A stretch of DNA of 64,000 bases from contig JAUWDY010000005.1 of the NCBI GenBank assembly GCA_030608565.1, positions 5,359 to 69,358 on the forward strand, read 5' to 3'. The notes below the pieces were generated by a model. It did no database searches and was not told where the DNA came from. It saw nothing but the letters and a program-made list of their open reading frames with translations. Positions 36,750 to 63,946 of the stretch are shown piece after piece (the stretch's first letter is position 1; the number at the start of each line of letters is the position of its first letter). The stretch is from Candidatus Bathyarchaeota archaeon (GTDB lineage: Archaea > Thermoproteota > Bathyarchaeia > Bathyarchaeales > Bathyarchaeaceae). A program made the translations under genes and the position numbers.

Positions 36750-36764
36750 TTGCATTCGCGCCTT

Positions 36765-37898: not shown

Positions 37899-38086
37899 TT
37901 TTTTCCGCCCTCTGATACTGCAGAGTATTTAGCTTTCTTAAAGATGCTTCCACTTTAGGATAGAAAAGCTATTTGCTTTGCACAAATGTAAACTCCGCGA
38001 TTATTCGCGTTTGGTTTCATAGAAGATTGTTCTAACAAGATTTATACTCTTGAATTCTTCATGCATTAGATGATAAGTGGTTTAAT

Positions 38087-40765: not shown

Positions 40766-40818
40766 TTTTATTTAATGGTTGTATAGAATATTTTTCGAGC
40801 TAGTTAGTTGTTTGCTGC

Positions 40819-44874: not shown

Positions 44875-44948
44875 TCTCCTTATCTCTTCAAGTTACATCT
44901 TATTAGGGGGCGATTTAAGGATTTCTCTGTAAAAGGAATATTCTGCTT

Positions 44949-46091: not shown

Positions 46092-46225
46092 TTATCCTCT
46101 CTCTCTTTCGTAATGTTATTAGGGAAAAATCACATAAAAACGTTATGCAGATCAGTTCTATGTCTCTCTCCTATTCAGCACAAAGTTGTCTTCTTACAAA
46201 AATAAAAAAGGGTATTGGGGTTTTA

Positions 46226-47164: not shown

Positions 47165-47240
47165 TCATTCGTCACCTACTATTTTATTCATGTTCCCGTC
47201 CTTAAATAGATTTACCCAAAAAAAATTTGGGGGCTTCGCT

Positions 47241-48137: not shown

Positions 48138-48203
48138 ATTGCTATTTTATTCTTTTGGTATTATCTTCTATTACAAAATTACAGATAAGGTACTATCAGC
48201 CAC

Positions 48204-49457
48204 TCATGTAGCCCCAAGGTTCATAGCGACCAACACGAGGTCACGCATATCAACAACGCCATCAGCATTAATGTCGCACTCAGGATCATATTCTGGCTCA
48301 CCTTCAAAAGAGCCAAAAGCAATCGACACCAACGTGATGTCAACCACATTGACAACTCCATCACTGTTGACGTCTCCTACGAGGGAGGTCTTGTAGTAAA
48401 TGTCATAGTTTCCCCAATCTGGTTGGTCTGCCCTATCTGAGGTCCACACTACCCAGATTTTGACAAGATGTGTCTGAACCACTGAGGGCCATATGTCATC
48501 GTACTTGTCTGTGGTGAATTGAAAAATATCTAACCATGTAACACCATCGTCAGATGAGTGCATGTAGTAGATGTCATCGGTTGCTGTTTCCGCGGGTTCA
48601 CGTTGTGACCAGAAAATCCGTATTTTTCTATCTATAGTTTGGAGAACATATGGGTTTGAATCGATCCTTGGGCCACTTGTTATTTGGGTGTCCTCAGACC
48701 ATGAAGCACCAAAGTTAGAAGAGGTTTTATGGTATAAGTCGTAGTTGCCGGTTCTATCAGAGGCCCAGACAACCCAAATCGTATTATCGGACGTTTCTGT
48801 GAGAGAAGGCATTTTGTCGAGACTTGAATCCGTAGTGAGTCGTATGTCGTCAGACCAAGAGGTTTCGTTGTTGTAAGAAAGTTTTCGATACAAATCGTAG
48901 CCTCCACTTCTATCAGAGGCCCAGACAACCCAAATTGACTCATCAGACATCTGGTGGATAGCGGGTTTTAGGTCGTGACCAGAATAGAAAGTTAGTTGAG
49001 TATCGTTAGACCATGAAGCACCAAAGTTTGGGGAAGTCTTGTAGAAAATCTCGTAGTTGCCGGTTCTATCAGAGGCCCAAACAACCCAAATTGTGCCATC
49101 TGAAGCTTGACAAGCGGAAACCCCTGAATTAGCGGTGCCATTTATAGTTAACTGGGTTTCTTGTGACCAGCTAACTCCCCAATTAGTTGAAGTTACATAG
49201 AAGAGATTATAACTGTCAATTATTTTTCTGGTCCAGAAAATCCACAATGTTCCATTATGTGTCTCAATGATGGCTGGAATTCCATCGAAATCCACGTAAG
49301 TGGTTAATCTAACTTCATCATCTGACCATGTTACGGCGCCAACGAGAATTGTTGATACGATTAGTAACAATGTAAACAAAACTGATGCGATAAGTCTCAT
49401 TTTGAAATCTATTTCTACTTGAAAAAGCTGCCCCAGATTCTTCCTCCCTCCTCTCAA
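48204..49457 (-). CDS. Secreted BNR/Asp-box beta-propeller (sialidase-like fold) + C-terminal dockerin
   Basis: Asp-box-like repeats seen: STNWGVSWS, SPNFGASWS, SYNNETSWS, SSNFGASWS, SSDDGVTWL. IWVVWASDR strands recur. The dockerin is GDVNSDGVVNVVDI...CDINADGVVDMRDL (nt 48207-48380). Confidence 0.8.
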   Translation of the reverse strand: MRGGRKNLGQLFQVEIDFKMRLIASVLFTLLLIVSTILVGAVTWSDDEVRLTTYVDFDGIPAIIETHNGTLWIFWTRKIIDSYNLFYVTSTNWGVSWSQETQLTINGTANSGVSACQASDGTIWVVWASDRTGNYEIFYKTSPNFGASWSNDTQLTFYSGHDLKPAIHQMSDESIWVVWASDRSGGYDLYRKLSYNNETSWSDDIRLTTDSSLDKMPSLTETSDNTIWVVWASDRTGNYDLYHKTSSNFGASWSEDTQITSGPRIDSNPYVLQTIDRKIRIFWSQREPAETATDDIYYMHSSDDGVTWLDIFQFTTDKYDDIWPSVVQTHLVKIWVVWTSDRADQPDWGNYDIYYKTSLVGDVNSDGVVNVVDITLVSIAFGSFEGEPEYDPECDINADGVVDMRDLVLVAMNLGAT

Positions 49458-49629
49458 CAGTCTAATGTTAAGTGAACCATTTTACCTTTTCGCTTCTACT
49501 TCCAACGAATGCATGTGCACTGTTTAGCATGCCGTCCAGAATTGTTTACGCTTCTTCAAAATCTCTCCTGTTCAAACCATTTTAGATGTAGCCCACACAC
49601 AAAAAAAGGAGACGCGTGAAAACCCTAGA

Positions 49630-52578
49630 CTAGACTGGTTTGGATTTCTTCATTTTCACCAAGTAAACTGCCATTACTGCGATTACTATTGCCATTCCGA
49701 TAGTCGTGTAGTGAAAGATGCCGAAAGGCGCCTCCGGCAATTCTTGTATGAGAACTCCAATGGTTCGCGAATTGTCCACACTATAGGTTTCTCCAGGTAA
49801 AGGTTCGGCTAATGCTTTGACTGTGTAAATGCCGGCCGCTATATTTCGTGTATCCCACGTAAGGCTTATTGTCTCATTTACGCCTGTAGCTAAAGGCGCG
49901 GTGAGGGCTCGTGTAAGTCGAGTGTTGTTATAGTAAATTGTCACATTAAACGATTCTATTGCAGTGCCCTTGTTCAAGGCGATCACATTTATTGTTAGCA
50001 ATTCTCCTTTGGTTGCTTTGATTTTTGATACTTCAATGTCGAGAATAGCTATGTCTTGGATCGCCACGTTCACGCTCAGTTCAGGACTTTCAGCTGAAAG
50101 AGTTATTGAATCGCCTTTCCAAGAGGCTTTGATTTGGTAGATGCCAGATTCTGTTGGCATCCAATCAAAGGAGTATTGACCGTTTTGACTTGTTGAGACA
50201 TTTGCAAGAGACATCCAAGCGGTCTCCTCAACACGTGTATATTCAATGGCCACAATCACGCTAGCACGAGCAGGTGAAATGGACCCGCTGATAGTTGTGT
50301 TGAAGCCAAGGGGAACGGTTGTAGGCGAAGTGGATATGGCAATTGTGCTAGACGATTTTGGCACTATTACAGTCTCTGTTTTCGTATGGTCTAAGCCGTC
50401 GTCGTCAACTACCTTCAATTTCACAGCGTAGGTGCCAGGCATACTGTAAGCATGGGTTGCAGTCACGCCCGTGGCGTTTGCCTCATCACCAAAATCCCAT
50501 ATGTAATTCATGATCTCTCCTTCAGGGTCTCCTGGTGCATAGCTGGCTGACGCGTCAAAAGTGACTACTTCGCCCATGTTTGGCTCACTGGGCGAGAAAG
50601 TGAAAAAAGGTACAGGGAGCAACCGAATCAGAACAGTCAAGTTTTGCACGTTGTTCGTCGTATTAGCTTCGTCAACAACAGGGGGTACATATGCAGTTAC
50701 ATTGTATACACCTTCAACAGTGGAGTTCATTGCCCTAAACCAACTGAAGCTCAATGTTGTGGTGGCTCCGGCTGACAGTGTTACCGCAGTCTGATTTGCT
50801 ATAGGTTCGGTTGAATTGGCATAAACAAACACGTCGAAAGTGTCGTCTATATTGCCTTTGTTTTCAATCTCAACTTCTATGGTTGAAATTCTTCCTACAA
50901 CGATGTCGGTTGGACTGACTTCTATATTGGTAATTGCTATATCGTGTACAGGAACTTCGGTGGCGACTATTGGATCGCCAAAAAGTGTGTTGTCGACTGT
51001 GTTTTTCTCTTCGCTGGGACGAAAAACATGAGGTTTGATAAAATCGACTAAGTAGGCGTTTGCCCATATAGCGTAAGATCCTGGTGTAATGTCTCTTGGT
51101 TGAAGAGGGTTGATTCTCACTGGAAGCCAATCAACATAAATTGGCGTTGCGTTGACTCCAACCTGGATGTACCTTATACGAACCCTTGTTTTATTCATCA
51201 GGCTGGGCTCCCATAAGAGGCTGCCAGTTACGTCAACCCAGAAAAATGCATCGGTTACAGATGTGATGTTATAGACGATATCTTCGCTCCAAGTCTTTCC
51301 GTTGTAAACGCTCATGTTTAACTGATCATCTCCGCCTACATCAGTTTTCACTTCTATTCCAACTTCCACTTTGGATACGCAAGTCCACCCGATGGTGTCA
51401 AATTCGTAGCCTCTAAATTCTTGATATGTGTTATTGGTGCTGGTGTAGGTATAGAGATCATCTGAAGTGGAAGCGTTGAGCGGATAAGTCCACGCTCCAA
51501 CACCTTCTATAGAAGGACTCAACATTGTTTGATTGATATACGTATTCCAAAGGAACGTAAGGGTTTCATTGTCTCCGGGACTTAAACCGTCCACAAATTC
51601 AGTGTTTATCGGTATACTGTTGTAGAAGGCGGTCACGTTGAATGTGTCGTGGTGACTACCATTGTTCAGAACGGTCACATCGATTCTTGCTATTTCACCC
51701 GTGTGAACTTCGTCTGGGGTTTCTATCTCCAAGATGGCTATGTCATGGAATTTAACGTCCACCTCAAGCGAGACGGTGTTGTTTTCGCCATCGTCGTCAG
51801 TGATTGAAAGCGTCACATTGTATGAGGTAAGAAGAGTAGTAGATACGTTGTAAGCATGAGTTGTGATCACGTCCGTTCCATTTGTTCCATCATCAAAATC
51901 CCATACGTAACTGACTATGCTACCTCCATCAGGGTCGTAGCTGGCAGAGGCGTCAAAAGATATAGTTTCACCAACTATTGGACGCCCATAGGTATCAGGG
52001 GTAAAGGAGAAAGCAGCCACGGGTGCAGTTGTGTGGAAATCTCCGTCAGATGTGCTATGTGAAATTTCAACAACAGAAGAATCCAACAATATTGTGCCAT
52101 AGAGGTGTAGAGTGGATTCTCCTGCGGCTTTTACAGTGAAGGTTACGGTGAAAAGGTTTCCGCTGCCGCCTACTCCAGGATACTTGCCCAAAGTGACGCA
52201 GGCAACATAAACATAATCGTCAGCGATTGTGTATGAAAAGTATGTTCCCATCGGAGACGTAGTTTGATCTTTTATGAAAGGCCCTTCCTCAACATCAGTT
52301 GCTTCCAGAACGTTCTTATCGAATCCTACTCTAGCCTCATACGAGAAGAGATCTGTGACATCGGCGACGCCGATCTCAATGATAAAAGATTCAGTAGGGT
52401 TCGCCACATTGTTCGCAGGATCTACCGCAATTGTTGTGTCAGGAGAAGCTGATGCATGTAATGGAAAGGGTAAAATCACGCCTAGTGCAGCTACAAGTAC
52501 TATTGACAGTAAAAGAAAAGTTATGCTGAACCTTTTGGGATGATGTAACTTACGTAATCTCATAAGCCCTCTCTCCAA
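49630..52578 (-). CDS. 982-aa surface protein: cohesin + PKD + CARDB-like domains + unknown domain + PKD + Ig-like domains + PEF-CTERM-like tail
   Basis: The probable start is the ATG at 52563, after GGAGAGAGGG. The cohesin spans aa 48-183 (nt 52030-52437). PKD motifs are present (FDASASYDPDGGSIVSYVWDFDDGT; FDASASYAPGDPEGEIMNYIWDFGDE). Several CARDB-like modules occur (HDIAILEIE..., HDIAITNIE..., QDIAILDIE...). The tail is LPEAPFGIFHYTTIGMAIVIAVMAVYLVKMKKSKPV. I counted >20 N-x-S/T sequons by eye. Confidence 0.8.
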   Translation of the reverse strand: MERGLMRLRKLHHPKRFSITFLLLSIVLVAALGVILPFPLHASASPDTTIAVDPANNVANPTESFIIEIGVADVTDLFSYEARVGFDKNVLEATDVEEGPFIKDQTTSPMGTYFSYTIADDYVYVACVTLGKYPGVGGSGNLFTVTFTVKAAGESTLHLYGTILLDSSVVEISHSTSDGDFHTTAPVAAFSFTPDTYGRPIVGETISFDASASYDPDGGSIVSYVWDFDDGTNGTDVITTHAYNVSTTLLTSYNVTLSITDDDGENNTVSLEVDVKFHDIAILEIETPDEVHTGEIARIDVTVLNNGSHHDTFNVTAFYNSIPINTEFVDGLSPGDNETLTFLWNTYINQTMLSPSIEGVGAWTYPLNASTSDDLYTYTSTNNTYQEFRGYEFDTIGWTCVSKVEVGIEVKTDVGGDDQLNMSVYNGKTWSEDIVYNITSVTDAFFWVDVTGSLLWEPSLMNKTRVRIRYIQVGVNATPIYVDWLPVRINPLQPRDITPGSYAIWANAYLVDFIKPHVFRPSEEKNTVDNTLFGDPIVATEVPVHDIAITNIEVSPTDIVVGRISTIEVEIENKGNIDDTFDVFVYANSTEPIANQTAVTLSAGATTTLSFSWFRAMNSTVEGVYNVTAYVPPVVDEANTTNNVQNLTVLIRLLPVPFFTFSPSEPNMGEVVTFDASASYAPGDPEGEIMNYIWDFGDEANATGVTATHAYSMPGTYAVKLKVVDDDGLDHTKTETVIVPKSSSTIAISTSPTTVPLGFNTTISGSISPARASVIVAIEYTRVEETAWMSLANVSTSQNGQYSFDWMPTESGIYQIKASWKGDSITLSAESPELSVNVAIQDIAILDIEVSKIKATKGELLTINVIALNKGTAIESFNVTIYYNNTRLTRALTAPLATGVNETISLTWDTRNIAAGIYTVKALAEPLPGETYSVDNSRTIGVLIQELPEAPFGIFHYTTIGMAIVIAVMAVYLVKMKKSKPV

Positions 52579-52706
52579 TCTCTATTTTGTCTAATACACT
52601 TTTAACTTAAAAGTTTCGCTATAGAAGAGTTCTCAAATAAAACTAGATAAATGACACATTAGCAGCTAGACGTGCAAAATAAAAAAGAAAAGGTTTGTTA
52701 GGTTTG

Positions 52707-54011
52707 TCAAGTGCGTTTTCTTCTCATGTAAAAGACTACGACGGCTAAGACTATGATTACGCCTATGGCGCCACCGATGACTAGGGTTGTTGGAAATGGT
52801 TCGGAAACCACGTTTACCGTAACAGTTCCGTCTTTGAACTCATTGTCGTCAGTGTCAACTTCGCCTTCGACTGTTGATGCAATAGCCTTTATCTGATAGT
52901 CTCCTTCAGCAACGCCTGTTGTGTCCCAGCTGAAAGTCAATGTTTCTTCGCTTCCAGGGCTCAAACCATCAACTTGCTGAGTGGCTATCGTGTTGGTGCC
53001 ATAGTATGTTGTTACGCCAAAGTCTTCTGATTCAGTGCCATCATTCCGAGCCGTTACATCAATGGAAACGGTTTCCCCAGCGTTAACTACTGCTTTCGAC
53101 ACTACAACGTTAGTTACTGCCACGTCATGAGCATAAGCGATACTCAGTGTTACCTCCTTTGTGCTGAAAAGTTCATACCAAATCCGCGGCATATCAGTAG
53201 TGTTGAATTGAGACTGCACAAGCGCAGACGCTGTGGCATCGTCGATGACAGTTAAAGAGGCAGTGAAAATTCCGCCAGTTGTGTAGGTATGTTCAGTAGT
53301 TGCCGTAGTGACCGAAGCATTTGTTCCATCTCCGAAATCCCAATAGTACTCAGCAATTTCCAATGGTGAGGTGGCACTGCTTGCTGAAGCGTTGAAGGTT
53401 GTCGGCTGATCTATTCCAGGAGGGTCAGGAGAATATGTGAAGTCAGCTACGGGTGGAATTAGAGTGTTGATAAAAAGACCGTTTTGGACAATGAGTTCAA
53501 GATCTTCAAAGTCGGGGGGAGGATTAGGGCTGTTCTGAGCTGTCAGATAAGTCAGATATATCTCTGTACCTGGGAGTGGATCGGTTTCAAACTTCAGGAG
53601 GGATTCTCCCTCAGCCACAACTTCAAACTCTACTGTCGCCAAAACTCCGCTGCCACTTATTCCTTGGTATTCACCGATTGTTGACCAGCCGAAAAGCGCT
53701 GAGGATTCTTCGATGTTCTGAACCCCAAATGTTCCATCAGGTTGCCACGCCAGGAAGTCTCCTTCTGTGACGTTGACAAAATTCAGTACGTCTGAATTGA
53801 AGGTTAGGTTTATCTGCCAAGCGTAGAGAAAATCGGCACCGGAAACAGTCACGTTGACTTTGAAGGATTCATCGACTGTTTTGTACACGATTGCTGGGTC
53901 AAAACTGATTTTTGCTGTAGCAGAAGAAGAGACAGTTTCAAGATTTATTAGAGTTGCTGCAAGAAGAAATGCCGAAAAGACAATTATGAGTAGCTTCTTT
54001 TTAAAGTTCAT
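52707..54011 (-). CDS. Surface protein: cohesin + PKD + CARDB-like domain + C-terminal TM/basic tail
   Basis: It has a signal peptide. The cohesin reads ADFLYAWQINLTFNSDVLNF ... GISGSGVLATVEFEVVAEGES. The PKD motif is FNASASSATSPLEIAEYYWDFGDGT. The CARDB-like module is HDVAVTNVVVSK...DVTARNDG. The tail is SEPFPTTLVIGGAIGVIIVLAVVVFYMRRKRT. Confidence 0.8.
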   Translation of the reverse strand: MNFKKKLLIIVFSAFLLAATLINLETVSSSATAKISFDPAIVYKTVDESFKVNVTVSGADFLYAWQINLTFNSDVLNFVNVTEGDFLAWQPDGTFGVQNIEESSALFGWSTIGEYQGISGSGVLATVEFEVVAEGESLLKFETDPLPGTEIYLTYLTAQNSPNPPPDFEDLELIVQNGLFINTLIPPVADFTYSPDPPGIDQPTTFNASASSATSPLEIAEYYWDFGDGTNASVTTATTEHTYTTGGIFTASLTVIDDATASALVQSQFNTTDMPRIWYELFSTKEVTLSIAYAHDVAVTNVVVSKAVVNAGETVSIDVTARNDGTESEDFGVTTYYGTNTIATQQVDGLSPGSEETLTFSWDTTGVAEGDYQIKAIASTVEGEVDTDDNEFKDGTVTVNVVSEPFPTTLVIGGAIGVIIVLAVVVFYMRRKRT

Positions 54012-54128
54012 ATTTCTCAGCTCTCAACATGGTTCTAGTATACTGTAGTTGTTGAACTAATGACGAGACATTTAAATTTATCTGTCTTACGATTTTCGTG
54101 CTAAAAAGGAGGATTTCACGTTGATTCT

Positions 54129-55751
54129 TCAAGTTTCTCCAAGATAATAGGCTACTATTCTGAGGTCTCGCATATCTACGATTCCATCTTTGTTTATGTC
54201 TGCACTCAAGTTGTAGCCAGGTTCACCCTCAAAGGTGCCGTATGCCAGTGAGACTAGTGTTAAATCTACAACGTTAATCTGACCATCCTCATTTACGTCG
54301 CCTGCCAGAGAGGTTCTGCAGAAAGCTTCCCAGTCCTCACCGAGGGGGTTTGACGTCCACACAACCCAGATTTTCGTATCTATGGTTTGCATGACGGCAG
54401 GCCACGTTTCATCGTCGTTGCTTGCAGCAAAATCAATCTCTCCAGACCATGAAGCGCCATCGTCAGAAGAGGACTTGTAGCAGATATCAGTGTTCCCCAA
54501 TGGTGCCCCAGAAGTATAGAATATCATTATGTTCTCGTCTATGGTCTGGAGGATTGCTGGGTGTACGTTGGTGTTTGTGTTGTTAGTTAGTGTTGTGTCA
54601 GCAGACCATGTGAACCCATTATAAATCTTGTAGAAAATATCATAGGTTCCTGTCCTCATTGAAGTCCAGGCTACCCATATATCTCCGTCTTTCATTTGAC
54701 CTACGCTTGGACCCTTGTCATGGGCAGGATCTGTCGTCAATTGGTTCGTTGGGGCATCTGCCCATGATTCGCCCTCTGCTATTATCTTGTAGCAGATATT
54801 ATGACTGCCTGACACATAGCTTTGCCACACGATCATAATTGTGCCATTAGCCAGCTGAATGATCGCTGGGCGCAAGTCATCGACATTATTATCAGTTAGC
54901 GGAAAATCTTTAGACCATGTTACTCCATTGTCATGCGAGGCTTTATAGTAGATATCATAATCCAAGGAAGGTGAAGAAGGCGAAGAAGCGGTCACGTGCG
55001 AGGTTTTGCTGGTCTGACTGGTTCCTTCAGTGACTACAATCTCCAAGTAGACGTCCACGATATGTATTGTATGGTCGCCTTTTCCCATTACAGTTAGAGT
55101 GTAATTTCCAGGTGTGGCTGTGGAATTCACTGTCACCATCAAGGTTGAGTTGGCTGTTCCATTGATTGGTGGCGTGACCTGAGTTGGAATGAGGGTTGTG
55201 CTTACGTTCGCTGGTTCAGGCGGCACAATCGAGAGGGTCACAGGATCGCTAAAATTATGTACTGAAGTCACAGTTATTGTTGAGTTGTCAGACCCCCCTT
55301 GTGGGATAGTCAAATTCTGAGGCAACGCGTCCATAATGAAGTTTGGGGTCGGAGGTGGAGGTGGTGGTTGCCTGCTTGAAGTCCATACAACCCATATTGT
55401 GCCGTTTTGAGCTTGCATAATTGATGGGTTTTGGTCGTGACCATCACAAAAATTATCTGTTAAGTTCATCGCTTCAGACCATGTACTACCTTGATCACTC
55501 GTGATATTGTAGTACAACGTAAGGTTACTATCGATCTCCTTTGACCAAACAAGCCACACTCTTAAGTCTTCTGTTTGTGCAAGTGTGGGAAAACTGTCCG
55601 CAATCAAGTTTGATGTGAGTTGTTTGGTGTTTGCAGACCATGATATGGCCTGCACTTGCATGAAAATTGAGGATGCAACGACTAGAATAAGGAAAGCGCA
55701 TGTGACGTTGATTGAGCGTTCACGACGCATTTTGATTATGTCTCCTGTCAT
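54129..55751 (-). CDS. Secreted BNR/Asp-box beta-propeller with an inserted Ig-like domain + C-terminal dockerin
   Basis: Asp-boxes seen: TSDQGSTWS, SHDNGVTWS, SSDDGASWS. A PPPPPPTP linker leads into a ~110-aa Ig-like insert. The dockerin is GDVNEDGQINVVDL...ADINKDGIVDMRDL (nt 54132-54305). Confidence 0.8.
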   Translation of the reverse strand: MTGDIIKMRRERSINVTCAFLILVVASSIFMQVQAISWSANTKQLTSNLIADSFPTLAQTEDLRVWLVWSKEIDSNLTLYYNITSDQGSTWSEAMNLTDNFCDGHDQNPSIMQAQNGTIWVVWTSSRQPPPPPPTPNFIMDALPQNLTIPQGGSDNSTITVTSVHNFSDPVTLSIVPPEPANVSTTLIPTQVTPPINGTANSTLMVTVNSTATPGNYTLTVMGKGDHTIHIVDVYLEIVVTEGTSQTSKTSHVTASSPSSPSLDYDIYYKASHDNGVTWSKDFPLTDNNVDDLRPAIIQLANGTIMIVWQSYVSGSHNICYKIIAEGESWADAPTNQLTTDPAHDKGPSVGQMKDGDIWVAWTSMRTGTYDIFYKIYNGFTWSADTTLTNNTNTNVHPAILQTIDENIMIFYTSGAPLGNTDICYKSSSDDGASWSGEIDFAASNDDETWPAVMQTIDTKIWVVWTSNPLGEDWEAFCRTSLAGDVNEDGQINVVDLTLVSLAYGTFEGEPGYNLSADINKDGIVDMRDLRIVAYYLGET

Positions 55752-55829
55752 AATTGTTAAATAAGATAAAAAAAAAGAGGGGATTGGATTTTCCCTACGA
55801 TTGTTTTGCTATTTTTGCTAGTCTGGTTC

Positions 55830-57224
55830 TTAAGGTACAATCCAGAAGTGCATTGTCTTCTGGGTTGATCCCCAAGAGTTCCATTTGAAGCCTTCGCTAG
55901 TGTATTCGATGGTTGCTGTGAGTTCGTATGTGCCGATGTGGTCTTCGCCTGAAAGCCATGTGACAGGGTCCAACTCAAGCTCCATGCCTGGGTTAACCAC
56001 GAATTCAGGTGGAGTAACAGGCGTTATAGCTGCAAACTCAACCTTCAATCGCACGCTGTCTATCTGCATAACATCAGGTGCGTCACCGTGGTAGTTGTAG
56101 ACGAGCATCTCAATATCGTTGAGGTCTGCTTCATTAGCTAGGTTTGGTTCTTGTTGTAGGACGCTTTCGCCGTCGATCCACCTAGTTCCGTACCAACCCC
56201 AGTCGGTAGTTCCCCAGCTGGATCCCCACCATGCAAACGCGGGCAGACCGTAAAGGTCAATGTCCACGTTCTCGGTGAAGCCATTTGGGAATCGCGAGTA
56301 GGTTTCTACCCATATGTTTGCGATCTCTTTGCCTCCAAGAGTAATATCTTCGAAGCCGAATAGAGATGCCCACTGGGCGTTAGCGTCGCCTTCAATGTAG
56401 TTGCCGTCGGGTTCTCCGAACAGGTTGGTTGGATCACCGTTGAATTCATAGTACCATTCGTTGAACTCGTTAACGTATAGGTATTCGAATGGTAGTGGTT
56501 CTCCAAGGCCACCGCCGGAGTAGGTTTGTCCAGCGTATATTCGGATGGTCCTGCTGTCTTCCAGTCGGGTTATGTCATAGCGTACCCTAACAGTTAGGGG
56601 AATGTCACCTTCGTTTATTACCTTGGCTTGGATTGGGAACACTGTTCCCGCTTTAACCTTGCGACCTTCAGGCATGTTTGCCCTGATCAGCCGTGCGGTT
56701 GGGCCTTGGTAGAAGGCGTCGGAAGTCTTGTGTGGCAGATAGTTGCCCTCTGGGTCCAACATAATGGTGTCCATCAGTGTTACTGGGCTTTCTCCAGATT
56801 CCACGACGAACAACTTGAATGTTGCCAGTATTCCGCTGCCAGATGCACCTACTCTTGGTGGGGTGCTCATCCTCATTATGACAACGGTGAATGTTCCTTC
56901 GAAAGAGTCAGTTGTGTATGTGAAGTAGGTCAGATGTGATCCACCATCATTCATGAAGCTTCCTTCTAGAATGTTGGATGCTGTTAGCACGGACACATAT
57001 GGCTGAACCTTCACAGTGAACTGAACTGCCCAAAGGTTTTCAGCATTGTCTATATTGACGGACATAGCGAATTCGTCGCCAGCGTGACCTTCCAGTTTAT
57101 CTGGCGTAATAGATATGGTGGTTGCGGGCGCTGCAGTCGTTGGGTTGATGCCAACCATCATGACGGTGAGCATCATTGCAATCAAGGATAGCAATAATAT
57201 GTTTTTTCCTCTCACTCTAATCAC
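55830..57224 (-). CDS. Secreted cohesin + uncharacterised ~300-aa C-terminal region
   Basis: It has a signal peptide. The cohesin reads AENLWAVQFTVKVQPYVSVL ... GASGSGILATFKLFVVESGES. The C-terminal region is Trp-rich and ends KTMHFWIVP (compare KTFSFAVVP in 47241..48137). The gene starts 9 nt after the stop of the binding-protein gene. Confidence 0.7.
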   Translation of the reverse strand: MIRVRGKNILLLSLIAMMLTVMMVGINPTTAAPATTISITPDKLEGHAGDEFAMSVNIDNAENLWAVQFTVKVQPYVSVLTASNILEGSFMNDGGSHLTYFTYTTDSFEGTFTVVIMRMSTPPRVGASGSGILATFKLFVVESGESPVTLMDTIMLDPEGNYLPHKTSDAFYQGPTARLIRANMPEGRKVKAGTVFPIQAKVINEGDIPLTVRVRYDITRLEDSRTIRIYAGQTYSGGGLGEPLPFEYLYVNEFNEWYYEFNGDPTNLFGEPDGNYIEGDANAQWASLFGFEDITLGGKEIANIWVETYSRFPNGFTENVDIDLYGLPAFAWWGSSWGTTDWGWYGTRWIDGESVLQQEPNLANEADLNDIEMLVYNYHGDAPDVMQIDSVRLKVEFAAITPVTPPEFVVNPGMELELDPVTWLSGEDHIGTYELTATIEYTSEGFKWNSWGSTQKTMHFWIVP

Positions 57225-57233
57225 CTCAATATT

Positions 57234-59372
57234 TTATGGGTATTCCTTTTGCCAGAGCAAGTGGTAGGCTGCGATGTATATGTCTCTCATGTCTACGATC
57301 TCGTCTGAGTTAAAGTCTGCAGCAGCGTTGTAGCAGGGTTTTATTATAGTACATCCGTAAGCGAAGCTCACGAAAGTCAAGTCGATGACGTTTACGACAC
57401 CGCTTTTGTCGTAGTCACCAACTTCCCAGAACATATCTGCCTTTAGAGTCGCTATAGCAGCAGTTGACATGAAGTAGTTCTCGTTCTTCCACATGTCGTC
57501 ATACATGTTCACTGCATCATAGAATTGGAATATCCATGGACCTGTTCCGAACAGGTTTGTTGGAGTTGGGTTTGGACCATCTGTGTAGCCAGATGCAACA
57601 TTGTAAGCCTCAGTTGGATCATAGTCTAGAACAGCCGCTCTCTCAAGTGGATCACTTGAGCTGCCAAACCGATTCCAAATGTGTTCTGGAATCAATGGGG
57701 CGAGACCAGAATAGTCATAGAATAGACCGATACCCTCTTCACTAGCTTCTATAGTGACATGTGTGTTATTTGTTACGACAACATCATCAAGTGTCATCCA
57801 TGTTGCGGCATACCTAGGCACTTGGTAGTCTCTGAGGAATTCTAAACAGAATTCGACATCGTAAGCCGTGAACGGCTTGCCGTCTTGCCAATCAACATCG
57901 TTCCTTAGAGTGAAATCTATATCCATTCCACCCACGGTCGACGTGATTGTCCAGTCTGACGCGATCCATGAAATGTCATTATGGTTGTACGGGTTCACAG
58001 CCGTCAAACCATCCTGGGTCTGTCCTATAATGTTCCATTCGTATACTGTGGTAGCATAGCATGGGTTGAGTGAGCCTGGATCGTCACCGTTAATGTAGAC
58101 TACGACATTCTTTGTGCCTTCTGTCCTTTCATATCCTGCTTCCCAATTGAGATTGAAGAACGTCCAACTGTTGTCTGAGCCGTAACCAGGCGATTTAACG
58201 ATGCCTTCAAGGTGTTCAGCGAACACGTTGAAATATGACCTGGAATACAGCAACATGTATGCCAACGCGAAGTTATCTGCGTTAGGATACGTGACTTCGT
58301 CATCAGTATACAGCATCTCTTGGACTTCTTTGGCGGCAGTTTCTATGTCGTCCGTGTCAAGGCTGAACTTAACTGTCTCAACGAGTGCATCGATGGCTGC
58401 ATCATGGAGTCCAGTAGCACCATCTGCTCCGGATAAGATCATGCAGTCTTGGCTTGAGTGAAGGAACGAATACAGTTGGTCAGGTATCCTTCCCATACCG
58501 TAGAAGACCATGTAAGCGTCGAAGTGGGCATAGTCGTACACATCTTCTAGGTATTCGCTGAAGTCTCGGCCAAGGCTTTCGAAGCCGCTGTTACCGTTGT
58601 CTGCAGTTGCTGCCAGTCCTATATTGCGTAGGTCTGCAACAAACTCTTGACCATGCTGGTAGGATGTTGGTGCAACTCCTATGAGTGGCGTCCATATCTC
58701 CAAGTGTGGTATAGGGGAGTTGTCGGGGGACCTCCAGAAGTCGTCATCCGTGACGGTTCCGCTGCTGTCGTCGTCAACAAAGGTGTAGCCAGCGTCCATG
58801 AGTATACCGCATGACGTGCCGTCACCGGCTGTAGACGTGAATGGGTTGCCTGGGTTATACGGATGCTCTGGAACACCAGGGTTGTAGTATTTGCTTTGAG
58901 CAGGTGGAACAAGTGAACGAACAGGTGTTACAATGTAACCATAGATTGGAGGGATAATCCCCAATTGGTCATAGCAATGGATAAGCGCATGTCTAAATTC
59001 CATATCCTGAAGAGGCCAATAAGTTATGTCAGTCCTCCAAGTATAGTTTGCCGCTATGGCCTCAGCGCTTTCACCTCGAATAGTGGCTGTGTCCCTGATG
59101 TTGTAGGCGATGAAGCCCATGTGAAAACCTAGGTCTTCTGTTACAGTCATACCATCGGCATCTTGCTTTTCAATATCTCCTGTTCTTATCTGGTCAGGTG
59201 AAAAGTCAGCTATACCAGTCTGCATTGCAATCAAAGCTGCGTCAGGTGATCTAATCACCATGTGACGTAGGATATCCATCTCCGGACCATTTTGCGAAAA
59301 GGTCGTTGAAACCATCAGAATCGGCGCAAGCATTGAAACTAGCATTATAGCTAATATAACTTTAGATTTCAA
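57234..59372 (-). CDS. ABC transporter substrate-binding protein, family 5 (OppA/DppA-like), apparently circularly permuted, with a C-terminal dockerin
   Basis: It has a signal peptide without a lipobox Cys. SBP_bac_5-type motifs seen: INGDDPGSLNP...DGLTAVNP...WIASDWTI...DFTLRNDVDWQDGKPFTAYDVEF, FGTGPWIF, and PLQDMEFRHALIHCYDQ. The C-terminus is a dockerin-like module (next feature). Confidence 0.8.
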   Translation of the reverse strand: MKSKVILAIMLVSMLAPILMVSTTFSQNGPEMDILRHMVIRSPDAALIAMQTGIADFSPDQIRTGDIEKQDADGMTVTEDLGFHMGFIAYNIRDTATIRGESAEAIAANYTWRTDITYWPLQDMEFRHALIHCYDQLGIIPPIYGYIVTPVRSLVPPAQSKYYNPGVPEHPYNPGNPFTSTAGDGTSCGILMDAGYTFVDDDSSGTVTDDDFWRSPDNSPIPHLEIWTPLIGVAPTSYQHGQEFVADLRNIGLAATADNGNSGFESLGRDFSEYLEDVYDYAHFDAYMVFYGMGRIPDQLYSFLHSSQDCMILSGADGATGLHDAAIDALVETVKFSLDTDDIETAAKEVQEMLYTDDEVTYPNADNFALAYMLLYSRSYFNVFAEHLEGIVKSPGYGSDNSWTFFNLNWEAGYERTEGTKNVVVYINGDDPGSLNPCYATTVYEWNIIGQTQDGLTAVNPYNHNDISWIASDWTITSTVGGMDIDFTLRNDVDWQDGKPFTAYDVEFCLEFLRDYQVPRYAATWMTLDDVVVTNNTHVTIEASEEGIGLFYDYSGLAPLIPEHIWNRFGSSSDPLERAAVLDYDPTEAYNVASGYTDGPNPTPTNLFGTGPWIFQFYDAVNMYDDMWKNENYFMSTAAIATLKADMFWEVGDYDKSGVVNVIDLTFVSFAYGCTIIKPCYNAAADFNSDEIVDMRDIYIAAYHLLWQKEYP
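57237..57422 (-). other. Divergent two-segment dockerin module at the C-terminus of the ABC binding protein
   Basis: The module reads GDYDKSGVVNVIDLTFVSFAYG ... ADFNSDEIVDMRDIYIAAYHL. Both 12-residue loops keep D/N/S at positions 1, 3, 5, 9 and 12, and each is followed by a helix. The same layout is seen in the six other dockerins in the window. Confidence 0.65.
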
Positions 59373-59548
59373 GTTCTCTCTTTTCTCCTTTCTTTTTTAT
59401 CAGCAGAGAAAATATACGGATGTCGCACAATATAAAAGTTGCCCACTGACACATATATAACAAAGATATAGAAATTTGTTCTACAAAGAAGTAGATAACT
59501 TTAAATGGTCTTGAAGAAAACGACTTATGGAGTAAAGGATGTGAGCAG
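59373..59548. promoter_or_regulatory. Divergent promoter region between the dockerin-SBP gene and the permease/ATPase genes
   Basis: This is a 176-bp A/T-rich spacer. It contains TATA-like boxes (cacaATATAAAAGttg near 59430, acaTATATAAca near 59455, aacTTTAAATgg near 59500). SD-like boxes face both ways (AAGGAG for the minus gene, GGAGTAAAGGATG for the plus gene). The transcription start sites are not determinable from sequence. Confidence 0.4.
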
Positions 59549-60547
59549 ATGCGAGAGTATCTACTCAAGAGGATTATAATCTCGATTTTTATCTTGTGGG
59601 TGGTTGCCACCTTAAATTTTGTCATATTCCAAGTCGTTTCTCCACTCAGTCCAGAAGACACATACGCTCCTTTGAATCTTGATATCCCACCAGAAACGCT
59701 AGAACTTATAAGAGAGCTATACGGCCTCAACGAGCCCATGCACATGCGATACATCAAATACATAAAAAACATGTTCACCTTCGACTTTGGAATATCATTC
59801 GTGAGCAGAAAACCAGTAGTCGTAGAAATGTCACAAAGGCTTCCGGCGACAGTGTTGCTTCTCGGTTCTTCAATGGTTGCAACTATTCTCATAGGCACTC
59901 CTATAGGAATACTTGCTGCTTCAAAGAGAGGATCTAAGAAAGATATAGTCACAATCGGCGCTGGTCTCTTCACGTGGGGCGTCCCAGTCTTCTTCATCCA
60001 ACTCTTGTTCATGCTGTTCTTTTCTTACTACTGGATGAAAATCTTCGGCGTCCCGCTTTTCCCTGTTAGGGGACTCTACAGCATTCCCCCGCTTGCCAAT
60101 CCTTTGGCATTTATGGCTGACGTAGCGTGGCATATAGGATTACCGCTTATAACCCTAGTAGTTGGTGGTTTCGGAGCTTGGGCGTTATACACAAGAAACA
60201 TCTTGTTGGACGCTCTTACACAAGACTATATAATCACAGCTAGGGCAAAAGGACTAAGTGAAAGAACCGTACTATACAGACATGCGTTCAGAAGCACACT
60301 TCCACCAATAGTGACCATAATAGCCCTCTCGATTCCTGGAATAATCACGGGAGCAATGATAACAGAATGGATATTCACACTGCCGGGAATCGGAAGGTGG
60401 TACCTAGACGCCTTAACAGGCTCGGATTATCCGGTACTTCAAGCAGTGCTCTTCATGTTCGCCATTCTAACAATACTCTGCAATCTAATCGCAGACCTTT
60501 TATATGGAATCCTAGACCCTCGAATACGAGTAGGCGTGAGAAGATAA
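59549..60547 (+). CDS. Opp/Dpp-type ABC transporter permease (OppB/DppB-like)
   Basis: The 332-aa product has 6 hydrophobic helices. It has the binding-protein-dependent transport signature region ITARAKGLSERTVLYRHAFRSTLPPIV and a C-terminal DLLYGILDPRIR. Confidence 0.9.
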   Translation: MREYLLKRIIISIFILWVVATLNFVIFQVVSPLSPEDTYAPLNLDIPPETLELIRELYGLNEPMHMRYIKYIKNMFTFDFGISFVSRKPVVVEMSQRLPATVLLLGSSMVATILIGTPIGILAASKRGSKKDIVTIGAGLFTWGVPVFFIQLLFMLFFSYYWMKIFGVPLFPVRGLYSIPPLANPLAFMADVAWHIGLPLITLVVGGFGAWALYTRNILLDALTQDYIITARAKGLSERTVLYRHAFRSTLPPIVTIIALSIPGIITGAMITEWIFTLPGIGRWYLDALTGSDYPVLQAVLFMFAILTILCNLIADLLYGILDPRIRVGVRR

Positions 60548-60560
60548 GGAGAAAGCAAAA

Positions 60561-61985
60561 ATGGCTTCAATCTTTTCTAAAGACAAAAGAATCATATACA
60601 CAAGAAGAATCCGAGAATTCTGGTTTGAATTCAAAAGCAAAAAAATTGGTCTGGCAGGTCTTGCACTAATCATAATCTACGTCCTAGTAGCAGTCTTTGC
60701 TCCTTTTCTAACACCGTACAATCCGATCACCCAACCTCGACTGGCTCAAGCCACTGCAATGCCTGAATGGATAACCGTTTTCCCAGGATACCAAGACTAT
60801 GGAAAAACCCAAAGAGAAATCCTCAACTGGAACGTGGAAAAGGGCTCCGAATTTGTTGAGGGATGGGGAAGCTCTGCTGAAATACAATACGAAGCAGGAA
60901 AACCTCAACTAGTTCAAGTAGAGTTAAGCAGCCAATTTTCGTATATGCAAATGGCTCCAAACGAGTTTTTCACACTATTCAGGTATGAAGTAGCAAACAT
61001 CAAAGACATAGAGTGTTCCATTGCACTATCACTTATCCCTCCTGAAGCAAACAGTTCTTACATCTTTTGGAGATCAGAAACACTGACTGCCGAAAAATCA
61101 CAAGATGTCACCGTAGACTCCAAGGACCCCATATTCATAAAGAGACTAGGATTTAAACTTCAAGAAAACCTTGGCAACATAATCTTCTCCCAAAAAGGAG
61201 ACTACACATTTATTCTGCTAATACAATTCAGGCCATTGTCAAATGATGCAATGGCTAAAGTGGTTATAAAAAACAGCCAAATCGTCCTATTGGGCCGCGT
61301 ACATGGAATTCTAGGGACAGACTACCTAGCAAAGGACATCTGGTCACACCTTGTTTGGGGTAGTCGAATTTCCTTGTCAATAGGCTTACTTGCAGCCCTC
61401 GTGGGAACCGTTATAGGTATATTCGTGGGAGTCACATCCGGATATCTCGGCGGATTGACAGACGAGGTACTTATGCGCACAGTTGATATACTCTTGTGCC
61501 TACCACTACTACCACTATTGCTAGCACTTGTCCACCTCTACGGAAGAAATGTGTACTACATAGTTCTGTTCATAGGAATCTTTGGTTGGCAAGGTCTAGC
61601 CCGAGTAATAAGGTCTCAGACCTTATCCATCAGGGAAACACCATACATCGAATCAGCTAGAGCCTCGGGCGCTAGCGGCTTCTACATAATGCAAAAACAC
61701 ATAGTCCCAAACATAATCCCAGTAGCCTTTGCATCCATGATCCTCGCAGTCCCAAGTGCCATTCTTTTCGAGGCGGCATTAAGCTTTCTTGGCTTTGGTG
61801 ATCCTAGGGTAGTAACATGGGGAATGATGCTTCAACACGCCTTTGGATTTGGAGGATTCAGTCAACTAGCTTGGTGGTGGATAGTACCTCCTGGACTAGC
61901 CATCATAGGCTTATGCATGGCCTTCGTATTCATTGGACACGCCTTCGACGAGATTGTAAATCCAAGGCTGAGGAGAAGACGATAA
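60561..61985 (+). CDS. Opp/Dpp-type ABC transporter permease (OppC/DppC-like) with a ~180-aa extracytoplasmic insertion after TM1
   Basis: TM1 spans aa ~30-50. A non-hydrophobic stretch then runs to aa ~245. The canonical core follows: GILGTDYLAKDIWSHLVWGSRISL ... YIESARASGASGFYIMQKHIVPNI ... DEIVNPRLRRR. Confidence 0.85.
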   Translation: MASIFSKDKRIIYTRRIREFWFEFKSKKIGLAGLALIIIYVLVAVFAPFLTPYNPITQPRLAQATAMPEWITVFPGYQDYGKTQREILNWNVEKGSEFVEGWGSSAEIQYEAGKPQLVQVELSSQFSYMQMAPNEFFTLFRYEVANIKDIECSIALSLIPPEANSSYIFWRSETLTAEKSQDVTVDSKDPIFIKRLGFKLQENLGNIIFSQKGDYTFILLIQFRPLSNDAMAKVVIKNSQIVLLGRVHGILGTDYLAKDIWSHLVWGSRISLSIGLLAALVGTVIGIFVGVTSGYLGGLTDEVLMRTVDILLCLPLLPLLLALVHLYGRNVYYIVLFIGIFGWQGLARVIRSQTLSIRETPYIESARASGASGFYIMQKHIVPNIIPVAFASMILAVPSAILFEAALSFLGFGDPRVVTWGMMLQHAFGFGGFSQLAWWWIVPPGLAIIGLCMAFVFIGHAFDEIVNPRLRRRR

Positions 61986-62954
61986 ATGGCATTGCTAGAT
62001 GTTGAGAACCTCAAAATGTATTACGGGACATTGAGAGGACAAGTCAGAGCAGTTGATGACGTAAGCTTTCAAGTAGCCTCAAAAGAATCCCTAGGACTAG
62101 CAGGCGAATCTGGATGTGGAAAAACAAGTGTAGCTCTCACTATACTTAGGTTGTTACCATGGAACGCCAAAATAGTAGGTGGAAGCATAAAGCTAGCAGG
62201 CGAAGACATCGTAAAGATGAGTGAATCGCAGCTCCAGAAGGAAATCCGTTGGAAAAGAATCTCCATGATATTCCAAGGCGCTATGAACGCACTGCACCCA
62301 ACATATACCGTAGGCGCCCAAATAACAGAGGCCATACTCACGCATGAAAAAGTTGGAAAAGAAGAAGCTTTGGAGAGAGCCACCAAGCTTATAGAACTCG
62401 TTGGAATGGAACCCTCAAGAGTCAAGCGATATCCCCACGAACTCAGCGGAGGAATGAAACAACGAGCCGTAACTGCTATGGCCTTAGCTTGTAATCCAGA
62501 TCTAGTTATAGCAGACGAACCCACCACCGCATTAGACGTAATTGTGCAAGCACAAGTATTGGAAGTCATGAAAGACCTACGAAACCGACTCGGCATATCT
62601 ATGTTAGTAATTTCACATGACCTAGCACTAATTGCGGAAACCTGCAACAAGATTGCAATCATGTATGCAGGCAAGATAATAGAAAACGGAGATGTAACCT
62701 ACATCTTCAAAGAACCACTGCACCCTTATACGCAAAAACTAATCACGGCTTTTCCAAGTGTCATAGGACCCAGAACCGAACTTTCATCTATCCATGGATT
62801 TCCACCAGACCTGTTAAAGCCTCCACCTGGATGCAGATTTCACCCAAGATGCGAACATGCAATGGAAATCTGCCGCAAGAAAGAACCACCACTCATAGAA
62901 GTTGGTAACAATAGATATGTAGCATGTCACCTTCATGAAGGGAGAAAAACTTGA
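61986..62954 (+). CDS. Opp/Dpp-type ABC transporter ATP-binding protein (OppD/DppD-like)
   Basis: Motifs seen: Walker A GESGCGKTS, signature LSGGMKQR, Walker B LVIADEPTTALD, H-loop ISHDL. The C-terminal oligopeptide-ABC motif is PPPGCRFHPRC. Confidence 0.92.
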   Translation: MALLDVENLKMYYGTLRGQVRAVDDVSFQVASKESLGLAGESGCGKTSVALTILRLLPWNAKIVGGSIKLAGEDIVKMSESQLQKEIRWKRISMIFQGAMNALHPTYTVGAQITEAILTHEKVGKEEALERATKLIELVGMEPSRVKRYPHELSGGMKQRAVTAMALACNPDLVIADEPTTALDVIVQAQVLEVMKDLRNRLGISMLVISHDLALIAETCNKIAIMYAGKIIENGDVTYIFKEPLHPYTQKLITAFPSVIGPRTELSSIHGFPPDLLKPPPGCRFHPRCEHAMEICRKKEPPLIEVGNNRYVACHLHEGRKT

Positions 62955-63946
62955 AAGACATAACAATCGAAACCCGCGATTTAGTAAAACATTTCCCAAT
63001 AAAAATGGGTTTCTTTCAAACCCTACGTACAAAAGAAGCACCAAAAGTCCACGCAGTAGATGGAGTAAGCCTACACATAAAGAAGGGGGAAATCCTCGGA
63101 CTTGTAGGCGAAAGCGGCTGCGGAAAAACCACCACTGGAAAGGTACTAGTTGGACTGCTTGAACCCACTGGAGGGCAAGTGTTCTTTGGAGGTACTGACT
63201 TGGCAAGCCTTCCTGATAAAGAAATGCGGAAGCTACGACGAAAAATACAAATAATATTCCAAGATCCGTACGAATCCTTAGACCCAAGAATGAGTGTCTA
63301 CGACATTGTTGCAGAGCCTGTGCGAATCCAAAAAGTCGTGAAAAGTGAAAGAGAAGTAGGCGAGAAAGTGAGAAAAGCCCTGGAAGAGTTTGACCTAGTT
63401 CCCCCAGAAGAATACATGTACAGATTTCCTCATGAACTAAGCGGCGGCCAAAGACAACGAGTATCCATAGCCAGATCTTTCGTTCTAGATCCCGAGTTTC
63501 TCGTAGCCGACGAACCCGTGTCAATGCTCGATGCTTCCATCAGAAGTGAAGTCTTAAAGCTATTGCTAACAATGCAGAAGAAACTACACACATCATTTCT
63601 CTACATAACCCATGACATAGCGTTAGCTCGACACATGTGCAATCGAATTGCAGTCATGTACCTAGGCAAAGTTGTCGAAAAAGGACTCACTGAAGACGTG
63701 ATACACAAGCCACTTCACCCATACACAGATGCCCTAATCGCTGCAGTGCCAGTTCCAGACCCAACAGCAAGACGCATCAGAGTTACTATACAAGGAGAGG
63801 TCCCCAGCGCAATCAATCCCCCGCCTGGATGCAGATTTAGTACACGATGCCCCCACGTCATGGAAATCTGCCGCAAGAAAGAACCACCACTCATAGAAGT
63901 TGCTGAAAACAGACAAGTAGCGTGCCATCTACACACAAAAAAATAG
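62951..63946 (+). CDS. Opp/Dpp-type ABC transporter ATP-binding protein (OppF/DppF-like)
   Basis: Motifs seen: Walker A GESGCGKTT, signature LSGGQRQR, Walker B LVADEPVSMLD, H-loop ITHDI. The C-terminal motif is PPPGCRFSTRCP. It overlaps the upstream gene by 4 nt. Confidence 0.92.
   Translation: MKDITIETRDLVKHFPIKMGFFQTLRTKEAPKVHAVDGVSLHIKKGEILGLVGESGCGKTTTGKVLVGLLEPTGGQVFFGGTDLASLPDKEMRKLRRKIQIIFQDPYESLDPRMSVYDIVAEPVRIQKVVKSEREVGEKVRKALEEFDLVPPEEYMYRFPHELSGGQRQRVSIARSFVLDPEFLVADEPVSMLDASIRSEVLKLLLTMQKKLHTSFLYITHDIALARHMCNRIAVMYLGKVVEKGLTEDVIHKPLHPYTDALIAAVPVPDPTARRIRVTIQGEVPSAINPPPGCRFSTRCPHVMEICRKKEPPLIEVAENRQVACHLHTKK

Follow-up and report, generated by a model that had tools for sequence, protein, structure and literature searches.

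The gene at 57234..59372, on the minus strand of a stretch of Candidatus Bathyarchaeota DNA, encodes a substrate-binding protein (SBP) of family 5 of the ATP-binding cassette (ABC) transporters. The whole stretch of 64,000 nucleotides (assembly GCA_030608565.1, contig JAUWDY010000005.1) is referred to as the window, and all coordinates are positions within it. The SBP ends in a dockerin, and its binding fold very probably represents a circular permutation of the family. Genes for an OppBCDF-type importer and for a cohesin protein stand on either side of it. We propose that the SBP is the receptor of this importer and is held at the cell surface by a dockerin-cohesin plug. The probability of this reading, which draws on sequence and on structure models, is roughly 0.6, and we consider retention of the SBP through a cohesin to be likely to just the same degree.

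In the proposed mechanism, the SBP of this Bathyarchaeia archaeon would serve as the extracellular receptor of the OppBCDF-type ABC importer whose genes are transcribed divergently from its own, and would be exported by a cleavable Sec signal peptide. Its chain would start at about canonical position 195, run to the old C-terminus, pass on to the old N-terminus and end after the equivalent of domain II. A Ca-binding, type-I-like dockerin would follow the new C-terminus, at the place where related archaea have a transmembrane (TM) helix, and would most likely take over the anchoring by binding a cohesin on a cell-bound protein. With such a tether, the receptor would stay close to its permease in a cell without a closed periplasm. 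The favoured partner would be the product of the co-transcribed cohesin gene, here called Coh464, which may be held in the membrane by its conserved N-terminal helix. Alternative partners would be the C-terminally TM-anchored single-cohesin proteins encoded just downstream. The SBP gene and its parts are as follows.

57234..59372, minus strand: gene of the SBP, 712 aa, family 5, very probably circularly permuted, with a C-terminal dockerin (open reading frame (ORF), Pfam, AlphaFold2, Foldseek)
59295..59372, minus strand: predicted signal peptide, residues 1-26 (MKSK, a hydrophobic core and TFS/Q), without cysteine (hydropathy and Cys scan)
58128..59294, minus strand: part corresponding to the C-terminal two-thirds of canonical family-5 proteins, residues 27-415 (PDB alignments)
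57429..58127, minus strand: equivalent of the canonical N-terminal third, residues 416-648 (PDB and Pfam alignments)
57237..57422, minus strand: dockerin, residues 651-712 (Pfam, a hidden Markov model (HMM) of window dockerins, AlphaFold2, loop scan)
57381..57416 and 57282..57317, minus strand: Ca loops of the dockerin, residues 653-664 and 686-697

The fold family of the SBP and the identity of its dockerin are close to certain. Pfam matches SBP_bac_5 (PF00496) to the protein at 92.2 bits (E=4.7e-26), well over the cut-off of 32.4. The AlphaFold2 model of the native chain forms one confident body, with a mean predicted local distance difference test (pLDDT) of 92.2 and a predicted template-modelling score (pTM) of 0.88. 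The best 50 Foldseek matches of this model are all family-5 binding proteins (E 5e-14 to 1e-11), and DppA, NikZ, AppA and OppA are found among the matches at E of about 1e-13. The best PDB sequence matches cover binders of peptides, nickel, mannosides and chitin; that the ligand is a peptide was assumed by an earlier, sequence-only reading of this DNA.

The 712-aa ORF opens with a TTG codon, with GGAG at 13 nt and a TATA-like TTTATATT at about 60 nt upstream. The NCBI protein that is 100% identical to the window SBP (P0001) is called from Met10; the TTG start is favoured because the homologues all open with a basic n-region. The hydropathy scan finds a single strongly hydrophobic 19-mer, the putative signal peptide of residues 1-26, which is a low-confidence helix in the AlphaFold2 model. 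The same scan shows no TM helix at the C-terminus. Residues 1-35 are free of cysteine, and a lipobox cysteine is absent. A marginally hydrophobic segment at residues 659-677 was rejected as a TM helix, being helix 1 of the dockerin with pLDDT >90. The signal peptide is weakly conserved among homologues (identity 0.30 versus 0.56 for the mature part), and large N-terminal add-ons between it and the SBP are tolerated. Two further ORFs, 59362..60012 (minus) and 58201..58461 (plus), were rejected as antisense shadows of oppB and of the SBP gene. The sequence-only reading had named a 712-aa family-5 binding protein that has a signal peptide and a double-loop dockerin at its C-terminus but lacks both a lipobox cysteine and a TM helix at that end, and it was right on each of these points. 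It was also exact on two spacings, placing the divergent opp genes across 176 bp and a cohesin gene 9 nt downstream of the SBP ORF.

What that reading missed is the circular permutation. The SBP_bac_5 match falls on the window SBP as two stretches in swapped order, and the PDB alignments are likewise swapped. In the PDB sequence search, residues 103-160 align to OppA 274-331 and residues 279-372 to NikZ 372-466; further along the chain, residues 425-515 align to OppA 24-110 and 608-643 to NikA 159-193. The best Pfam stretch places residues 469-640 on profile positions 5-148. When the sequence is re-ordered (416-648, then 27-415), Pfam returns a single colinear match over profile positions 5-344 of 368, and the score rises from the 92.2 bits of the native order to 102.1 bits. 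The Foldseek alignment of the model covers only about 380 columns at a target TM-score of about 0.5, as expected when an aligner that depends on sequence order meets a permuted chain. The junction of the old termini lies near residues 405-420, at a dip in the model's confidence. The new termini lie at about canonical position 195, which we take, from the OppA and DppA domain definitions, to be just after domain II. A tandem duplication or an assembly artefact was rejected, as the re-ordered sequence makes one full copy of the profile; the same chain order in hundreds of independent metagenomic proteins also rules out an artefact.

The breakpoint is common to distant members of the family, at profile position about 140-148 in Pfam. 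Residues 29-266 of P0175, P0241, P0239, P0208 and P0248 fall on profile positions 138-363, and the stretch right before the dockerin of P0189 and P0099 falls on positions 4-142. In TM-anchored relatives, profile positions 141-363 are covered by residues 34-265. All subfamilies tested have this breakpoint, which points to a single ancestral permutation. The best 150 representatives of clusters at 50% identity are all homologues, and those inspected are colinear with the SBP across the junction. The PDB sequence search found no solved structure colinear with the permuted family. Nothing relevant on a natural permutation of OppA-type binding proteins was found in the literature, which is absence of evidence only. 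The SBP is thus, with high confidence from its sequence, a circularly permuted variant of the PF00496 family.

The dockerin was identified by several routes. Dockerin_1 (PF00404) scores 20.3 bits on residues 652-700 (E=6.3e-4), under its cut-off of 22.9, and several homologues have a precomputed PF00404 match. An HMM built from the five other dockerins of the window, each of which passes the Pfam cut-off, gives 49.6 bits for residues 652-705; 2000 shuffles of the tail yielded at most 11.4 bits. A phmmer search of the PDB matches the module to the dockerin 2y3n_B (E=0.0019). The two loops, DYDKSGVVNVID and DFNSDEIVDMRD, have D, N or S at positions 1, 3, 5, 9 and 12, and the helices behind them (residues 662-670 and 695-703) are modelled at pLDDT 93-95. 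Residues G652, D653, D664 and D697 are invariant in 60 homologues. A VDMRD motif and A-Y helix positions are common to this dockerin and to that of the adjoining BNR-repeat protein, so their cohesin specificities may overlap. The chain closes with the tail LLWQKEYP (57237..57260, minus strand; residues 705-712), which the model places in beta-bridges.

The same position of the fold is not always occupied by a dockerin. Of the family members with a length of 550 aa or more (207 proteins), 166 show a strict dockerin loop within their final 90 residues, and many others have divergent dockerin loops by eye. Eight members of the permuted family have a TM helix and a basic tail in place of the dockerin, including P0175 of Candidatus Geothermarchaeales and P0239 of Thermoprotei. 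The P0175 gene opens an operon of the order SBP-oppB-oppC(483 aa)-oppD-oppF, and the P0239 gene precedes a fused permease. These TM-anchored relatives head opp operons, and the permuted fold is therefore a genuine ABC receptor. At its C-terminus the permuted family carries either a TM anchor or a dockerin. According to reviews, the Opp-class binding proteins of crenarchaea pair a signal peptidase I (SPase I) signal with a TM anchor at the C-terminus (PMC3387779). The alternation fits this crenarchaeal rule and is the strongest indirect argument for the dockerin as a retention device.

The importer genes lie on the other strand, beyond the start of the SBP gene.

59373..59548, no strand: divergent intergenic region between the SBP gene and oppB, 176 bp (ORF list)
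59549..60547, plus strand: OppB-like permease (BPD_transp_1, E=3.2e-37, and BPD_transp_1_N)
60561..61985, plus strand: OppC-like permease, 474 aa (OppC_N at residues 18-60, BPD_transp_1 at 286-472)
61986..62954 and 62951..63946, plus strand: OppD-like and OppF-like ATPases (ORFs, synteny)

The OppD and OppF orthologues are syntenic in loci L005 and L012, at 72-82% identity, and ABC_tran and oligo_HPY are annotated on their equivalents in L020 and L021. The ORF list holds no second binding protein gene beside this transporter within the window. The divergent arrangement of oppBCDF and SBP is kept in L005, L010, L012, L013 and L021. It is quite probable that the window SBP is the cognate receptor of OppBCDF. 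The OppC-like permease is unusually long: by hydropathy, about 205 extracytoplasmic residues are inserted between its TM1 and TM2 (residues 57-263, nt 60729..61349), and Pfam finds no match in this insert. In L020 and L021, too, the gene of a permuted SBP is accompanied by that of a long OppC, of 483 and 475 aa. The P2 loop of MalF is the analogue we considered for this insert, and by this analogy the insert might offer a docking platform for the permuted receptor.

On the other side, the cohesin gene and the genes that follow it are arranged as listed here.

55830..57224, minus strand: Coh464, 464 aa, with an N-terminal hydrophobic helix, one cohesin (residues ~36-173) and all-beta C-terminal domains (Pfam, AlphaFold2, Foldseek, synteny)
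54129..55751, minus strand: BNR-repeat propeller protein with a C-terminal dockerin (BNR_2 E=4.3e-12, Dockerin_1 E=3e-10, synteny)
52707..54011, minus strand: single-cohesin protein (cohesin-PKD-CARDB) with a C-terminal TM anchor and basic tail (Pfam; hydrophobic segment 404-432; synteny)
49630..52578, minus strand: single-cohesin protein of 982 aa (cohesin, two PKD, three CARDB, Ig) with a C-terminal TM anchor (Pfam; hydrophobic segment 950-978; synteny)
48204..49457, minus strand: second BNR-propeller protein with a dockerin (BNR_2 E=3.8e-14, Dockerin_1 E=1.1e-9; its equivalent is the last gene seen in L022)

Cohesin (PF00963) scores 21.2 bits on Coh464 (E=3.5e-4, cut-off 24.1), and some Coh464 orthologues have precomputed PF00963 matches. 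The AlphaFold2 model of Coh464 has a pLDDT of 88.8. In Foldseek it matches the Archaeoglobus fulgidus cohesin 2xdh (TM-score 0.78, root-mean-square deviation 2.7 A, 23% identity) and the C. thermocellum type I cohesin 1ohz (TM-score 0.81), as well as many cohesin-dockerin complexes. The modelled Coh464 has the cohesin jelly-roll fold; the sequence-only reading had already called this downstream gene cohesin-bearing. Coh464 shows no C-terminal TM helix and no dockerin. Its N-terminal helix (residues 8-24) is conserved at 0.56 identity, compared with 0.45-0.53 for the mature part. In this it is unlike the signal peptide of the SBP, which is conserved at 0.30, and Coh464 may for this reason be a signal-anchored cohesin. 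Sites resembling A-x-A are present (TTA/AP and ALA/AP) and cleavage is possible, and Coh464 can tether the SBP only if its own N-terminal helix stays in the membrane. We infer that Coh464 is the favoured, membrane-proximal and N-terminally anchored partner, and we put the chance that it is the partner of the SBP dockerin at somewhat short of even. Residues ~240-400 of Coh464 form a conserved all-beta region without a Pfam match, with the motif ...FEDITLGG...WGTTDWGW...IDSVRLKVEF. Modules like the C-terminal region of Coh464 recur once or more in the fusion proteins P0107, P0134, P0136 and P0156, and a module at residues ~360-480 of the 982-aa cohesin protein is possibly related to it.

A word-indexed search for homologues of the SBP returned 168 proteins of about 700 aa, and those among them that carry an organism name are Bathyarchaeota. 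An exhaustive search of the clusters found 99 representatives at E<1e-30 and 312 at E<1e-10. The genome matches are all Bathyarchaeota/Bathyarchaeia metagenome-assembled genomes (MAGs), and a distant dockerin-bearing subfamily (P0189) is also from Bathyarchaeia. A single MAG (JASFPO01) carries at least four paralogues (L005, L006, L009 and L014). The order oppFDCB / SBP-dockerin / Coh464 / BNR-dockerin / cohesin-PKD-CARDB-TM is found in five loci, namely the window, L005, L012, L021 (its SBP being P0100) and L022 (P0069). The SBPs of the syntenic loci are 37-65% identical to that of the window, with L005 at 65% and L012 at 37%. Where the syntenic contig continues, a second large cohesin protein and a second BNR-dockerin protein come next. 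Ten SBP and ten Coh464 homologues lie on contigs of identical length, which suggests many more adjacent pairs. The two proteins are also found fused in metagenomic sequences. P0156 consists of an SBP-dockerin followed by residues 25-457 of Coh464, CARDB and a second dockerin, and P0107 carries the C-terminal domain of Coh464 behind its SBP-dockerin. The fusions P0005, P0066, P0079 and P0087 join an SBP-dockerin to a cohesin and a terminal dockerin. Fusions that by necessity are without the N-terminal helix of Coh464 gain a terminal dockerin, a further point in favour of Coh464 as an anchor.

The SBP gene belongs to a dockerin/cohesin island at 35-59 kb of the window, with six dockerin and seven cohesin proteins. 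The dockerin proteins are a NosD/beta-helix protein, a subtilase of family S8, a 312-aa protein, the two BNR propellers and the SBP. When the BNR protein was searched against PDB sequences, only its dockerin was matched. All seven cohesin proteins have a single cohesin match in Pfam, and there is no multi-cohesin scaffoldin of the cellulosome type within the window. Three cohesin proteins (44949..46091, 49630..52578 and 52707..54011) end in a hydrophobic helix and a basic tail, and by this prediction they are cell-bound anchoring cohesin proteins. A further cohesin protein is encoded at 47241..48137. Dockerin and cohesin genes largely alternate along 35040..59372, which hints at cognate one-to-one pairs side by side instead of a multivalent scaffoldin. 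Two adjacent NosD/beta-helix proteins make a second case of dockerin/TM alternation in the window, the one at 35040..36749 (plus) ending in a dockerin and the one at 36765..37898 (minus) in a TM helix and basic tail. A 1351-aa protein at 40819..44874 (minus) combines about ten InlB B-repeats with one cohesin and, at the C-terminus, a FIMAH domain; it has no TM anchor. Outside the island, a 781-aa protein at 2051..4396 (minus), without a Pfam match, has one dockerin-like loop (GDINMDGVVDNKDLYIIGRNYG) at its C-terminal end, directly before a TM helix and basic tail.

Retention by the dockerin, the central claim of the sequence-only reading, gains indirect support from the TM-anchored relatives, from the gene order in five loci and from the SBP-dockerin::cohesin fusions. 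Its further claim, that the SBP shares one scaffold with the dockerin-tagged subtilase, is not supported. No cohesin protein of the window shows more than one cohesin, the subtilase gene is 17 kb distant, and the conserved companions of the SBP are the BNR-dockerin proteins. Several observations also weigh against the importer receptor held by a cohesin. The Dockerin_1 score of the SBP and the Cohesin score of Coh464 are both just under the curated cut-offs. The tail behind the SBP dockerin follows a consensus, WQ[KR]EYP, in most family members, and the other dockerins of the window are without it. Coh464 has no C-terminal anchor, and its N-terminus could be an ordinary cleaved signal, in which case Coh464 would tether nothing. 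The C-terminally anchored cohesins hold their cohesin at the far end of a PKD and CARDB stalk, an awkward geometry for ligand delivery to the permease. Some paralogues have no ABC genes in their sequenced flanks (P0014/L001, L009, P0087/L002-L004, L007, L008 and L015). Others are fused at the N-terminus to a GH25 lysozyme (P0120), a PQQ propeller (P0021) or an InlB B-repeat (P0060), and some family members may therefore act as binding modules instead of transport receptors. The paralogues without ABC genes may, on the other hand, share one permease, and the fusion to a lysozyme hints that some members take up cell-wall fragments (muropeptides).

These last observations, together with the number of paralogues in one MAG and the place of the SBP gene amid so many dockerin and cohesin proteins, are what speaks for a different role. 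The SBP-dockerin could mainly be a subunit for ligand capture or targeting in an extracellular cohesin-dockerin assembly with BNR propellers, subtilase and beta-helix proteins, much like a carbohydrate-binding module, with retention for transport secondary or absent. We judge this unlikely. The window copy and its orthologues keep the divergent oppBCDF across 37-65% identity, the TM-anchored relatives head classical opp operons, and the window transporter has no other adjoining binding protein gene. Additionally, orphan binding-protein paralogues that use one permease are an established pattern of Opp systems. The lack of a C-terminal anchor in Coh464 can also be read the other way round: the SBP itself would be held by an uncleaved N-terminal signal anchor, cleavage of its signal peptide being putative, and its dockerin would recruit soluble cohesin proteins such as Coh464. 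This arrangement is improbable. The N-terminal segment of the SBP is poorly conserved relative to the mature part, and small residues are found at -3 and -1 (TFS/Q here, AFA/T and VSA/Q in homologues). Domains of 130-500 aa are inserted between signal peptide and SBP in P0021, P0060, P0088, P0099 and P0120, and relatives have a C-terminal TM helix just where the dockerin stands.

The dockerin-like tail might, finally, bind no cohesin at all and serve as an intramolecular, EF-hand-like Ca-binding stabiliser of the permuted fold. The near-universal presence of the module in the Bathyarchaeia family, its Pfam score under the cut-off and the family-specific tail in beta-bridges of the model would agree with this, yet we consider it highly improbable. 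The module is clearly homologous to the dockerins of unrelated proteins of the window and has the same VDMRD and A-Y positions as the BNR dockerin; cohesin genes adjoin the SBP gene, are co-conserved with it and are sometimes fused to it; and the TM-anchored family members fold without a dockerin. The receptor tethered through a cohesin thus remains our preferred reading. It can be extended to a design in which permutation and dockerin belong together, although we find the extended form rather unlikely as a whole. An entire lineage of archaeal receptors would have been re-threaded for a tether at the new C-terminus, and in Bathyarchaeia the fixed membrane helix would have been exchanged for a non-covalent plug. 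The several paralogous SBP-dockerins of one genome could then dock via a membrane-proximal Coh464, with its N-terminal helix as anchor, over one OppBCDF with its extra extracellular OppC domain (about 205 aa), giving an importer with exchangeable receptors and a physical link to extracellular hydrolases that carry dockerins.

Where cells lack a closed periplasm, their ABC importers are believed to retain the receptor through a lipid anchor, a TM helix or a permease fusion. If the proposed reading is true, the cohesin-dockerin tether would be a fourth mode of retention, non-covalent and potentially exchangeable. The dockerin-bearing and TM-anchored states can be compared within one protein family, which makes the idea testable with recombinant modules. 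The permutation bears on how much re-threading the lobes and hinges of the binding fold can tolerate, and also on how such proteins are annotated automatically. Bathyarchaeia, which are abundant in sediments, are credited with the degradation of detrital polymers. A conserved gene cluster that links surface-displayed propeller and hydrolase proteins to an importer is therefore relevant to how they feed.

The nearest known relatives in architecture come from anaerobic methanotrophic (ANME) archaea, and they correct the sequence-only reading, which was aware of no described example. Chadwick et al. 2022 report NikA/OppA and TroA binding proteins as common dockerin carriers in ANME archaea, and their S4 Data hold about 20 dockerin-bearing family-5 proteins (PMC9012536). 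These ANME proteins have a single PF00496 match that covers 0.94-0.99 of the model, begins at about residue 130 and extends to the C-terminus (PMC9012536, S4 Data). In ANME-1 GB37, the 580-residue KNCLMAJC_01306 has its dockerin at 34-86 and a canonical SBP at 92-578, and the cohesin genes KNCLMAJC_01308 and 01309 adjoin it (PMC9012536, S4 Data). Both systems thus have an archaeal family-5 binding protein with a dockerin and with cohesin genes alongside, and both are known from genomics alone. They differ in that the ANME dockerin is N-terminal on a canonical fold, whereas here it is C-terminal on a permuted fold and in another phylum. Most simply, the two would be independent inventions that converged, and their different dockerin placement and fold suggest that the solution arose twice. 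The dockerin-SBP itself is known from ANME; new here are the permuted fold with a C-terminal dockerin in Bathyarchaeia and the conserved cluster of importer, cohesin and dockerin genes.

Other known systems resemble single parts of the arrangement. The crenarchaeal Opp-class proteins of Sulfolobus and Aeropyrum (PMC3387779) belong to the same transporter class and also combine an N-terminal signal with a C-terminal retention device, which is a TM helix there and a dockerin in the window SBP. Bacterial OppA, DppA, NikA and AppA (PDB 5f1q, 4oeu, 1xoc, 8are) have the same fold family and OppBCDF-type partners. Compared with these cluster-C proteins, the window SBP is permuted, only 14-18% identical and larger in its SBP part (about 620 versus about 500 aa), and its predicted retention is by a dockerin, in contrast to a lipid anchor or the periplasm in the bacteria. 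The clostridial type I pairs (1ohz) and the non-cellulosomal pair of Archaeoglobus fulgidus (2xdh) have in common with the window proteins the duplicated 12-residue Ca loop with its helix, and the cohesin beta-sandwich (TM-score 0.78-0.81). The window departs from the cellulosome in having no multi-cohesin scaffoldin and no cellulases, and in a cargo that includes a transport receptor. Its anchors are TM helices, in place of S-layer homology (SLH) modules or sortase signals.

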